From the NCBI GenBank assembly GCA_963823555.1, contig CAWGMA010000001.1, positions 1,728,001-1,792,000 of the forward strand: a stretch of 64,000 nt of DNA. Reading direction: 5' to 3'. The notes below the pieces were generated by a model that was given only the letters and a program-made list of their open reading frames with translations, was not told the DNA's origin and ran no database searches. Made by a program: the position numbers and the translations under genes. This DNA is from Candidatus Eiseniibacteriota bacterium. Lineage in GTDB: Bacteria > Eisenbacteria > RBG-16-71-46 > CAVPCR01. Of the stretch, positions 34,134-44,182 are shown piece after piece (the first letter of the stretch is position 1; every line of letters begins with the position of its first letter).

Positions 34134-34265
34134 GTTCTCTGCACAACCCCACGATCCGCTGCCGCGCGGCACTCCTTGTGTTGCACGCCTCCTCTGGCCC
34201 AAGGCATACTTCGGAGTGCAAGAACGCGCCTCGAATGACACATGCAGATGAGAATCGAGGAATGG

Positions 34266-35678
34266 ATGATCTTTCGCAACTACTACCTGAGCTGTCTGGC
34301 CCACGCCTCGTACCTGATCGGCGACCGCCGGACCGGAACGGCCGCGGTGATCGATCCTCAGCGCGACATCGAGCAGTACATGGAGGACGCCGCCGCCGAG
34401 GGTCTCACCATCCGTCACGTCATCGAGACCCACCTCCACGCCGACTTCCTCTCCGGTCACCTCGAGCTCAAGGCCCGCACCGGGACCGCCACCATCCATT
34501 TCGGCGCCAAGGCGCCGGTCGAGTTCCCGTTCAATCCCCTGCACGACGGCGATGCCATCGAGATGGGCGATGTCCGCCTGGTCGCTCTCGAGACCCCCGG
34601 GCACACTCCGGAGTCGATCTCCATTCTCGTCTATGACCTGGCGAGCGATCGCGAATCGCCGTATGCCGTGCTCACGGGCGACACGCTCTTCATCGGCGAT
34701 GTCGGGCGCCCCGATCTCATGGCCGCCAAGGGGATTTCACCCGAGGAACTGGCCTCGCTCCTCTACGATTCCCTCCATCAGAAGCTCCTCACGCTCCCGG
34801 ATGCAACGCGCGTCTACCCGGCGCATGGAGCGGGATCCCTCTGCGGCCGGGCGCTCAAGGACGAGCGCGTGTCCACCATCGGCCAGGAGAGGCAGTGGAA
34901 CTACGCCTGCGCCCCGATGGAGCGCGGGGACTTCATTCGCATGATGACGAGCGATCTGCCGATGGTCCCCGCCTACTTTCCCTTCGATGCGCAGCGCAAC
35001 CGGGAGGACCGTCCGACCCTCGATCACGTGCTTGCAGGGCTTCGTCCATTGAGCCTCGACGAGGTGCTCGAGATGGTGGCGAATGGCGCCACGCTCCTCG
35101 ATGTGCGCGAGCCCGCCGAGTATGCGGCGGCGCATCTCCGTGGCTCGCTCAACGTGGGATTGAGCGGCAAGTACGCCACTTGGGCCGGATCGCTCGTCGA
35201 TCGCACGCGACCCATCGTTCTCATCACGAATCCGGGACAGGAGAAGGAAGCGGCCATCCGCCTCGGCCGCATCGGGTTCGACGAAGTCGCCGGCTTCCTC
35301 GACAGCGGGCTCGAGGCCGCCCGCGGGCACGAATCCGACCTCGTCGTGAGCGGGGACCGTCTTACGGCGAACGAGCTCCACGCCCGCCATCCGGCGCCTC
35401 TCATCCTCGACATCCGGGAACGCGGGGAGCGCGAGGCGAAGCACATCCCGGATTCCTCCTGGATCCCGCTCGGTCAGCTCCCGGAACGGCTCGGTGAACT
35501 GCCGCGGGATCGCGAGATCGCGGTCCTCTGCGCCACCGGAATGCGCTCGAGCATCGGCGCCAGCGTGCTCCGCCGCGCCGGCTTCCATCGGGTCATGGAC
35601 CTGATGGGTGGGATCGAGGGCTGGGCGCAGGCGGGGTTGCCGGTGACGACGCCGGGGACTCTCCGACCAACCGCTTGA
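34266..35678 (+). CDS. MBL-fold persulfide dioxygenase fused to two rhodanese domains (CstB-like)
   Basis: CLAHASY, IDPQRD, ETHLHADFLSG, TPGHTPE, TGDTLFIGDVGRPD, PAHGAGSLCG; rhodaneses LDVRE and AVLCATGMRS. Confidence 0.9.
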   Translation: MIFRNYYLSCLAHASYLIGDRRTGTAAVIDPQRDIEQYMEDAAAEGLTIRHVIETHLHADFLSGHLELKARTGTATIHFGAKAPVEFPFNPLHDGDAIEMGDVRLVALETPGHTPESISILVYDLASDRESPYAVLTGDTLFIGDVGRPDLMAAKGISPEELASLLYDSLHQKLLTLPDATRVYPAHGAGSLCGRALKDERVSTIGQERQWNYACAPMERGDFIRMMTSDLPMVPAYFPFDAQRNREDRPTLDHVLAGLRPLSLDEVLEMVANGATLLDVREPAEYAAAHLRGSLNVGLSGKYATWAGSLVDRTRPIVLITNPGQEKEAAIRLGRIGFDEVAGFLDSGLEAARGHESDLVVSGDRLTANELHARHPAPLILDIRERGEREAKHIPDSSWIPLGQLPERLGELPRDREIAVLCATGMRSSIGASVLRRAGFHRVMDLMGGIEGWAQAGLPVTTPGTLRPTA

Positions 35679-42447: not shown

Positions 42448-42550
42448 CGCCCCGGCGGCGTCCGCGCCGAATGGTGAACCCTCGGCTGACTCGAGCGGCT
42501 CTCACCGGATGAAGGCCAGAGAGAGCTCCCCTGGACCGGAGTGAGGCAGG

Positions 42551-42715
42551 ATGGACAGCATATTCGGATTCGTCGTCTTCATCGTCGTCTGGATCGCGAT
42601 CCAGACCTGGGTGCTTCCCCGACTGGGGATCCCCACCTGAGGCGTTCCCAACCCGCGCCGGTCGGCGCGCTCTGACCAGGACAAGGACCATCACGACACC
42701 ACCGGGAGGTGTTGA
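42551..42715 (+). CDS. Small single-TM protein, candidate selenoprotein (TGA 42638-42640 read as Sec30)
   Basis: MDSIFGFVVFIVVWIAIQTWVLPRLGIPT-U-GVPNPRRSARSDQDKDHHDTTGRC*; purine-rich SD region GGAGTGAGG upstream; SECIS-like hairpin; the extended ORF stops 2 nt before the next ATG. Confidence 0.65.
42654..42669 (+). promoter_or_regulatory. Candidate bacterial SECIS element
   Basis: CGCGCC-GGTC-GGCGCG; GGTC at positions 23-26 counting the T of TGA as 1. Confidence 0.6.
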
Positions 42716-42717
42716 TC

Positions 42718-43119
42718 ATGGAAACACGCACGGCGTTCGGGATGAGGAAGGAGCTCGATCAGAGCTTCGACGAGGTGCTCGCCCGCGTCCCCGAGGCGCT
42801 ACAGAAGGAAGGGTTCGGCGTCCTCACCGAGATCGACGTCAAGGACACGCTCAAGGATAAGCTCGGTGTCGAGTTTCGCCGCTACAAGATCCTCGGGGCC
42901 TGCAATCCGCCCCTCGCCCACCGGGCGCTTTCCACCGAGATCGAGATCGGGCTCATGCTCCCCTGCAACGTGATCGTCTACGAGAAGCCGGGCGCGGGGA
43001 CCGTGGTGGCCGCGATCGATCCGATGCAGACCATCGCGGGGCAGGGAAGCCAGGAGATCCGCGAGGTCGCCGCCACGGTGCGCGAGAAGCTGGCGCGGGT
43101 GCTGGATCACCTCGGATGA
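42718..43119 (+). CDS. DUF302 family protein
   Basis: EGFGVLTEIDV, YKILGACNP, IGLMLPCNVIV, AIDP. Confidence 0.92.
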   Translation: METRTAFGMRKELDQSFDEVLARVPEALQKEGFGVLTEIDVKDTLKDKLGVEFRRYKILGACNPPLAHRALSTEIEIGLMLPCNVIVYEKPGAGTVVAAIDPMQTIAGQGSQEIREVAATVREKLARVLDHLG

Positions 43120-43122
43120 GGA

Positions 43123-44016
43123 TCAGGTCTCGCGGCGATCGACGAGCCAGACACCGAGGATGATGAGCGCTCCGCCCAGGAGCGAGACCGGCATGATCGT
43201 CTCCCCGAGGACCAGGCGGGCGACGACGACCGCCACCAGCGGTTCGAGGTAGAGCAATACTCCGACCTGTGAAGCCGGCATCGCCTTCAAGGCGTCGTAC
43301 CAGAAGATGTAGGCCAGTCCGGAACAGAAGACCCCGAGGAACCCGAGCGCCATCCAGCCGCGACCGGACAGCTGCGCGACCTCGGCCAGGGATGGACCAC
43401 CGATCAGGAGGAAGGTCGCGAGCAGCCAGCCCAGCCCCATCACATAGAGCATCATGAGAGCGGCCGGATGGCGCTTGAGCCCGCGCCGCGACAGCACCGA
43501 GAACACCGCCCAGTTGGGCGCGCTCAAGAGGATCAACCGATCCCCCGCATTCCCGAAGCCGCCGTTCCAGAGCTGGGCGACGTGCCCCTTCCCTACCACG
43601 AGGATGACGCCCGCCGCGGCGAGCGCAATACCCGCGGAGCGCAGCCAGCCGATCCGCTCCCCGAGCACGAGCCACCCCAGGAGCGCCATGAAGATCGGCG
43701 ACGTGGAGACGATCCACGACGTCGTCGAAGCTTCGGCGGTCCTGAGACCGTTGGCCTGCAGCCACTGATGGAATGTGACGCCGAGAAAGCCGAGGCAGGC
43801 GAAGTAGACGAGGTCGCGCCGCCCAACGCGGGCGAGCTCGCGGCGCGCCGCAGCGGTCACGGCGAGAACCGCGACACCCGTGGCGAAGCGCAGGCAGATG
43901 ATCGTGGCGGGAGAAAGGTCTTCGAGCGCCACCTTGGTGGCGATGAAGGAGGCACCCCACACGACGACGGCGACCAGCGCCTTCGTGACGGCGATCGCGC
44001 GCGGGTGCGAACTCAA
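43123..44016 (-). CDS. DMT/EamA family transporter
   Basis: About 10 TM; VWGASFIATK, LRF, LGERI, LGVFCSGLAY, YLEP, LGE; TTG start. Confidence 0.92.
   Translation of the reverse strand: MSSHPRAIAVTKALVAVVVWGASFIATKVALEDLSPATIICLRFATGVAVLAVTAAARRELARVGRRDLVYFACLGFLGVTFHQWLQANGLRTAEASTTSWIVSTSPIFMALLGWLVLGERIGWLRSAGIALAAAGVILVVGKGHVAQLWNGGFGNAGDRLILLSAPNWAVFSVLSRRGLKRHPAALMMLYVMGLGWLLATFLLIGGPSLAEVAQLSGRGWMALGFLGVFCSGLAYIFWYDALKAMPASQVGVLLYLEPLVAVVVARLVLGETIMPVSLLGGALIILGVWLVDRRET

Positions 44017-44105: not shown

Positions 44106-44182
<77 letters not shown>

Follow-up and report, generated by a model that had tools for sequence, protein, structure and literature searches.

In the E. coli fdhF gene, the SECIS element carries GGUC at positions 22-25. 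Single-pass membrane selenoproteins are known from eukaryotes, where SELENOK and SELENOS possess a disordered cytosolic tail and a selenocysteine (Sec) residue near the C-terminus, with the SECIS element residing in the 3'-UTR. For bacteria, a consensus SECIS model was reported in 2026 along with a table of 119 prokaryotic selenoprotein families (Table 1 of PMC13188914, in its available text), and 57,630 selenoproteins are listed in BSepDB according to the available part of its description (PMC13326102), whereby catalogues were built by searching with known families. Regarding sulfur metabolism, E. coli YgaP was described as a membrane sulfurtransferase (PMC4730233), rhodanese and persulfide dioxygenase genes were found to cluster in sulfide oxidation operons (PMC9163753) and DUF302 genes were reported from sox clusters, for which a role in sulfur oxidation was speculated (PMC5037610), each as far as the accessible parts of these papers go.

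Within the window, i.e. the whole stretch of DNA that was analysed (64,000 nucleotides of contig CAWGMA010000001.1 from Candidatus Eiseniibacteriota bacterium), a small gene is located which, judged by comparison with its homologues, belongs to a widespread family and almost certainly encodes a selenoprotein, for which the support is good (Table 1). A previous sequence-only reading had pointed to its short frame ending in TGA, to the hairpin behind it with a GGTC loop at positions 23-26 counted from the T of the TGA, and to a read-through product that stops directly ahead of a DUF302 gene; all of these details were found to be exact. Likewise, its interpretation as a small single-pass selenoprotein was corroborated by one predicted helix, the alignment of the TGA with Cys, a hairpin contrast between TGA and Cys copies and an open frame behind the TGA. 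The DUF302 gene encodes the Cys motifs GACNP and PCNV and is the sole copy found in the genome, and a hemerythrin domain identified by Pfam near the small gene is encoded on the opposite strand. An ORF similar to the one upstream of the small gene was also seen upstream of the small gene in a relative of the same genus. Neither a sigma-70 promoter match nor, on the + strand, a terminator-like site was found at the locus, and Rfam matched nothing in the window but the tRNA. Among RNA libraries, two runs gave small shares, and a 259-nt contig spans 42536-42792 with 11 differences in 257 positions; as contigs show neither strand nor transcription, it was not counted as evidence.

Table 1. Features of the small gene and its surroundings (positions within the window)
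Feature	Position	Strand	Basis or remark
Small gene, read-through ORF with stop	42551..42715	+	54-aa single-pass membrane selenoprotein candidate
Start ATG of small gene	42551-53	+	29 codons before TGA, ending WVLPRLGIPT
GGAG/GAGG, Shine-Dalgarno-like, upstream of small gene	42538..42546	+	Consensus resemblance only
Predicted transmembrane helix, residues 2-25	42554..42625	+	AlphaFold2 helix and hydropathy
Signature L-P-x-[LFM]-G-[VI]-x-T immediately 5' of the site	42614..42637	+	60-row alignment
In-frame TGA, putative Sec30	42638..42640	+	Aligned with Cys in homologues
Bacterial SECIS-type hairpin CGCGCC-GGTC-GGCGCG	42654..42669	+	6-bp stem, GGUC loop, 19 nt past codon
Hairpin arms and loop	CGCGCC 42654-59, GGTC 42660-63, GGCGCG 42664-69	+	Sequence
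GGGAGG, Shine-Dalgarno-like for DUF302, within read-through tail	42704..42709	+	Sequence
Cys54, final residue; putative partner Cys of Sec30	42710..42712	+	Sequence comparison
Second in-frame stop TGA	42713-15	+	Ends 54-aa product
DUF302 protein (PF03625, E 2e-25; TT1751/1J3M-like)	42718..43119	+	ATG 2 nt past small-gene stop
Upstream ORF, 223 codons	41776..42447	+	Without Pfam/NCBIfam match
MBL-fold and rhodanese gene, 7 kb upstream	34242-35678	+	Pfam
EamA transporter	43123-44016		Beyond DUF302
tRNA gene (tRNA-Asp) just past EamA transporter	44109-44182	-	Rfam and tRNA scan

A word-index protein search with the query returned no match and profile searches were needed, for which a profile of 12 sequences was used. 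In the phylum of the host, this profile matched 44 of 206 genomes (one match, in genome G190, being weak), and in all 30 loci read there a TGA directly follows P-x-x-G-x-x-T. In the protein database, 1,710 proteins were matched at E <=0.001. Proteins ending in LPxxGxxTC, which the sequence-only reading had put forward as Cys orthologues, do exist: 109 of the best 150 of these proteins possess Cys at the site, and in 94 of the 109 a second Cys follows five residues further on. On the DNA level, a pattern permitting any codon beginning with TA or TG at the site, and blind to other substitutions, was run over 3 of the 64 parts of GTDB and yielded 120 loci, from which about 2,800 stretches are estimated for GTDB; one of the 120 failed the profile, leaving 119 genuine loci. 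Their titles name Desulfobacterota, Planctomycetota, Acidobacteriota, Nitrospirota, Myxococcota, Chloroflexota, Spirochaetota, Gemmatimonadota, KSB1, Armatimonadota and Alphaproteobacteria, and cultured carriers are Geomobilimonas luticola, Pelotalea chapellei and Geobacter sp. OR-1. A Cys codon (TGY) was read from DNA at 7 GTDB loci, all of Planctomycetota, and at 119 metagenome loci. A quick and weak tree, built on 40 columns and well supported at 9 of its 168 branches, nests the Cys forms among the Sec forms, which suggests that Sec may be the ancestral state. Among viral contigs, the protein search found no relative and the DNA pattern search identified three IMG/VR contigs (L054, L055, L056), all of the TGA form, whose sequence might stem from the host where it borders a provirus. 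Longer forms (P0153-P0156) were considered as an extension of true members and rejected, as they look like gene-call run-ons. Neither Pfam nor NCBIfam (release 20) contains a model that the small protein matched over cut-off, and no PDB structure matched; the sole result from the ESM Atlas was a cluster at 0.88 named 'hypothetical protein', which is likewise every source name shown for family members.

The hairpin of the query (GGUC loop, 6 bp, 19 nt, -11.7 kcal/mol) fits the published bacterial SECIS model (PMC13188914), which was coded in our own scripts. Of the 109,058 TGA triplets of the genome, 47 are followed at 17-24 nt by a hairpin with 6 perfect base pairs and a GG loop of 4 nt, a looser rule is passed by 3,674, and folding of the 63 nt from the TGA of the query gave z +0.96 against shuffles, 170 of 200 shuffles being equally stable. 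Since hairpins of the loose rule are common and the sequence folds no better than its shuffles, the hairpin alone is weak evidence, so that comparative data have to carry the case for Sec. The comparison set comprised, after removal of near-duplicates, 163 TGA and 96 TGY loci, the latter coming mostly from a metagenome scan directed at TGY. A first coding of the SECIS model was dropped as too permissive, as 204 of 300 ordinary TGA stops passed next to 148/163 TGA and 58/96 TGY loci; stricter rules, fixed only after this permissive result was known, passed 139/163 TGA loci, 19/96 TGY loci, 37/400 ordinary stops and 57/400 ordinary Cys codons. The cleanest control was obtained by shuffling synonymous codons with the peptide kept (200 shuffles; stem of at least 5 bp, G[G/U] loop), whereby such a hairpin was present in 144 of 163 TGA copies against an expectation of 12.8% (maximum of the shuffles 20.2%), and in 13 of 96 Cys copies against 8.9%. 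In 30 hand-picked loci, 73.6% of the cells pair and five of the six stem pairs show changes on both sides. The hairpin that had been noticed in a single sequence is a SECIS-type element that is conserved in the TGA copies of the family and lost in the Cys copies. The RRSAR residues of the query overlap the hairpin and are not independent evidence of coding conservation.

A check of the host genome (92.5% complete) for selA, selB, selC and selD, as proposed along with the sequence-only reading, was positive throughout: selA, selB and selD score above cut-offs and tRNA-SeC is present. The selD gene possesses an in-frame TGA of its own, and its hairpin passes the identical test, at 20 nt. Among the first 50 genomes tested from the 111 GTDB TGA loci, 47 encode selA. 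In a Planctomycetota sample of 301 genomes, centred on a chosen Cys carrier, selA was found in 23 of 24 TGA carriers and in none of 4 Cys carriers, with a baseline of 217/301; as 4 of six further Cys carriers do have selA (4/10 overall), a genome need not lack the Sec machinery to harbour a Cys form. No selA was found in 3 of the 50 GTDB genomes, in 1 of the 24 Planctomycetota and in 4 TGA carriers of the host's phylum, the last being 56-86% complete, and those of the first two tallies are draft genomes; all of these tallies concern related genomes and hence are not independent. Within the phylum of the host, presence of selA was rejected as a discriminator, the baseline being 182/206. Further TGA codons with SECIS-type hairpins were seen in the host genome (G000) at C1:1638085(+), C1:1632372(+), C2:139022(+), C2:649882(-), C2:668598(-), C3:333396(+) and C4:717067(-), in contexts (ARV-U-HS, HPT-U-GPC, TPT-U-PHC, FPA-U-PFC and others) which we take to resemble known selenoprotein motifs.

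For the small protein, AlphaFold2 predicts a single helix, with a mean pLDDT of 89 over residues 1-20, followed by a tail of low confidence, and the Kyte-Doolittle 19-mer maximum of the query is 2.45; P23, G26 and T29 are invariant in the 60-row alignment. According to the positive-inside rule, a positively charged flank stays cytoplasmic, and as the charge is +1.27 past the helix and -0.45 before it, a cytoplasmic tail is suggested. The helix is hence probably oriented N-out/C-in, so that Sec30 would reside at the cytoplasmic face and form a reversible selenenyl-sulfide or persulfide with a partner Cys of the tail. Such a Cys is kept in 152 of 163 TGA copies. Where it resides five residues past the site (117 tails), a further Cys is found in only 5; among the 46 tails without this +5 Cys, 35 have a later one, in 11 cases inside the last four codons, and 11 have none. 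This relocation pattern is partly compositional, since in a control reading of frame +1 Cys codons occur in 24 of the same 46 tails; Cys54 of the query would fit a partner Cys of the relocated type. At first, the query was taken to be devoid of a partner Cys and to rely on one of DUF302, an idea that lost ground once Cys54 and the relocated Cys of other tails were considered; a remnant is that 5 of the 11 Cys-less tails directly precede DUF302. In-frame fusions to thioredoxin were identified at L081, L234, L276 and P0042; since the reading frame of the small protein at L043 continues into an ArsR gene, such run-ons, those into thioredoxin included, may be accidental.

Neighbouring genes were surveyed at 165 loci of at least 2 kb (120 TGA, 45 TGY) with Pfam on representatives and counts by local profiles; in the baseline, taken from windows of one genome, each listed family is expected in <1%. 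YgaP-like genes, which encode one invariant Cys, adjoin 40 of the 165 loci (14 TGA, 26 Cys), followed, in the order TGA/Cys, by thioredoxin-like (14/7), rhodanese (10/9), MBL-fold (6/8), CydA-like (0/13), TauE (2/6) and flavoprotein (0/7) genes. At 73 of the 120 TGA loci, all seven thiol/sulfur-type families are missing inside 1.5 kb, which speaks against one common pathway, and a sulfurtransferase-type neighbour lies within 1.5 kb at 16/120 TGA versus 30/45 Cys loci, the strong signal of the latter probably stemming from largely related Planctomycetes loci. The nearest MBL-rhodanese gene of the window is 7 kb off; such genes, whose products are presumably dioxygenase-like, flank 14 related loci. 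When a Cys-form member was modelled in complex with the YgaP-like protein encoded beside it, the score was 0.00, which was counted neither for nor against binding. As side observations, a cassette of zf-HC2 anti-sigma factor, small protein, YgaP-like protein, CydA-like protein and an unassigned, conserved ORF recurs at Cys loci (L059, L061, L065, L079, L215, L217, L237, L274, L277), and the small gene resides just downstream of rpoA and rplQ at L060, L066, L083, L093 and L107, four of which are Nitrospirota. Of the redox/metal context that had been proposed earlier, the Cys motifs of DUF302 stand; none of the common clusters of neighbours contains hemerythrin again, which is why the context points more to thiol/sulfur chemistry than to that gene.

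The suggested mechanism assumes that SelB, acting at the hairpin, would insert Sec30 into a one-helix membrane protein of 54 residues, whereby Sec30 would pair at the cytoplasmic face with the sole partner Cys of the flexible tail (usually at +5, here Cys54). The reversible selenenyl-sulfide or persulfide thus formed would be recycled by thioredoxin, the small protein would take part in the handling of sulfide and persulfide alongside proteins of the YgaP-like, rhodanese, MBL-rhodanese and TauE types, and in the DUF302 subfamily the DUF302 protein with its two cysteines would be translated together with it and likely be the partner it works with. As a whole, this chain, in which a Sec/Cys pair tethered to the membrane relays sulfane sulfur or exchanges disulfides, thioredoxin recycles it and DUF302 is co-translated, is put at even odds; the assignment of thioredoxin recycling, of the sulfide/persulfide role with these neighbours and of DUF302 as partner is put at slightly short of even. 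Alternatively, a true selenoprotein might use its Sec/Cys pair at the membrane for binding soft metals or metalloids such as Cu, Zn, Hg or As and pass them to an exporter or sensor. This would agree with ArsR genes beside 22 of the 120 TGA loci (and 6 Cys loci), FmdB zinc ribbons (19/0), RND pumps (8/3) and zf-HC2 anti-sigma factors (8/22), with one CsoR/RcnR-type repressor neighbour and with the three or four Cys of some Cys-form tails. Yet the YgaP-like, rhodanese, MBL-rhodanese and TauE neighbours and the thioredoxin fusions fit sulfur/thiol chemistry better, and neither a heavy-metal ATPase nor a mer gene was seen in the 45 commonest neighbour clusters or in 150 neighbour ORFs, many of them unassigned. 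Some ArsR and CsoR subgroups are persulfide sensors. The metal-binding role is regarded as unlikely, though the least so among the alternatives.

The coupling to DUF302 that had been suggested for the query was recovered in part, as DUF302 is a neighbour at 13 of 120 Sec loci, with both Cys motifs kept in 12 of the 13, and at none of 45 Cys loci, so that it is not a family-wide trait. At the 9 loci at which DUF302 follows directly, the second stop of the small gene resides at -4 relative to the DUF302 start in 6 and at +2, +13 or +16 in the others, and tail length at DUF302 loci varies from 23 to 37 codons. As the stop-start spacing is constrained while the tails vary, this supports both translation to the second stop and coupling within the DUF302 subfamily. 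Of the 13 loci, 12 are without the +5 Cys and fall into one weakly supported clade (the host's phylum, Acidobacteriota, Myxococcota); the DUF302-linked loci are probably one subfamily and, with 12 in a single clade, the link may go back to one event or one origin. In the query, the region around the DUF302 start is predicted to form a hairpin with the read-through tail (about 42684-42721, + strand), a pairing that is not consistent across the other eight loci. Family-wide translational coupling was considered and rejected, the counts of stop/start overlap per frame, 23, 5 and 21 of 125, showing no enrichment, as was a conserved occlusion of the DUF302 start, its region being not consistently more paired than the surroundings at nine loci. 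These results bear on the view that the small gene is mainly a selenium-sensing leader, in which read-through, taking place only with selenium, carries the ribosome to the DUF302 start. The narrow spacing despite variable tails and the hairpin of the query would be expected from such a leader; conservation of helix, signature and second Cys at the protein level, Cys forms that require no selenium, the missing enrichment and the inconsistent start pairing speak against it and render it quite improbable. A leader effect could be a by-product of the selenoprotein role.

At the site itself, the 119 genuine GTDB loci comprise 111 TGA, 7 TGY and 1 TAA, with neither TAG nor TGG; Cys homologues aligned with the TGA had been anticipated. 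Past the TGA, the frame is stop-free for 13 codons in 163 of 163 copies, versus 52/152 and 65/159 in the other two frames, and the +5 Cys, present in 117/163, is encoded as TGC and TGT alike; coding conservation past the TGA is present. Because of the codon pattern, the hairpin contrast, the open frame and the partner Cys, decoding of the TGA as Sec, inserted via binding of SelB to the hairpin, is considered about 95% likely. Were the TGA an ordinary stop, the product would be a 29-residue membrane peptide and the hairpin a chance or terminator-like structure. Hairpins are indeed frequent in DNA of 67% GC, 9 of the best 150 database proteins finish at the site, and one locus (L099, Caldithrix sp., site 2499, minus strand) is the sole TAA copy. 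A true stop would, however, hardly yield 111 TGA for a single TAA or TAG, Cys orthologues that share the tail motif, an open frame in every one of 163 copies or a hairpin limited to TGA copies, and no terminator-like site was found on the + strand; L099 itself keeps MNPDAC (M-x3-C) behind its TAA in a genome that has selA, the TAA likely being a recent mutation or a sequence error. This alternative is very improbable. Decoding of the TGA as Trp or Cys under a reassigned code is less probable still, as the W found at the site in 18 of the best 150 proteins (which next to the Cys forms and those ending there include 12 with another letter, one of them a repeat false match, and 2 outside the pattern yet visibly TC at the site) likely reflects gene calls under another code, given that none of the 119 GTDB loci has TGG even though the pattern permitted it, that the DUF302 gene and the small ORF each end in TGA, and that the sole tRNA found with a TCA anticodon is tRNA-SeC.

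A gene for 50-60 residues that is cut to 29 codons is easily missed, the more so because catalogues were built by searching with known families. If the estimate of about 2,800 holds, a few thousand genes would be added to the 57,630 listed in the available part of BSepDB, in an architecture unnamed in the lists surveyed. As Sec and Cys forms both exist, the chemistry becomes testable on a short peptide, and the small family opens a way to the function of DUF302 and of YgaP-like membrane domains that stand alone. In its boldest version, the family would rank with the most widespread bacterial selenoproteins not yet catalogued (an estimated 2,800 or so GTDB stretches, mostly Sec, in some ten phyla) and be a minimal membrane redox module bringing selenium into sulfane-sulfur handling, with DUF302 as two-cysteine partner under selenium-dependent translation; taken in full, this proposal is speculative and given about one chance in four.

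Compared with known systems, the small family is not recognisable by name, model or motif among the 119 families in the available text of PMC13188914, whose Table 1 comes without sequences, and no description of it was found in the accessible parts of the literature surveyed, including PMC12013277, PMC13326102 and bioRxiv 2022.07.06.499078. NCBIfam release 20, compared with 60 members, gave nothing better than E 0.02, none of the six weak matches being a selenoprotein model. The small catalogued selenoproteins, i.e. KCU-star (NF033934), dual-CXXC (NF041197), UXX-star (NF041114/NF041211) and the hypothetical DG, DW and DF families, are, in the available entries, likewise small or unassigned and possess Sec/Cys pairs, and TsoB (NF045694, UxxxxU) shares the four-residue spacing of the small family. 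Thioredoxin-fold selenoproteins differ, as the query has neither a Trx fold nor UxxC/CxxU and a thioredoxin domain is attached in the four fusions only. SELENOK and SELENOS are similar by anatomy only, their Sec position and SECIS placement being different. YgaP-like (PF11127), rhodanese and MBL-fold genes recur beside the small family much as in YgaP-type and sqr-pdo-rhodanese clusters, but the small protein has no PF11127 match and is not homologous to YgaP, and it is not named in the accessible parts of PMC4730233 and PMC9163753; in the accessible literature, a link of DUF302 (PF03625; TT1751, PDB 1J3M) to a selenoprotein was not found. With the SelB/SECIS genes (FdhA/fdhF, SelD), the gene shares an in-frame UGA, a small G-led apical loop, here 19 nt downstream, selA, selB, selD and tRNA-Sec in the genome, and Cys homologues. 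It differs from them in a protein without enzyme domain that consists of one helix and a disordered tail of mostly 14-56 residues, and in its motif, where T-U-x4-C, or a U whose Cys lies far off, takes the place of UxxC/CxxU. The decoding is thus of a known kind, and the one-helix Sec/Cys architecture appears to be new.
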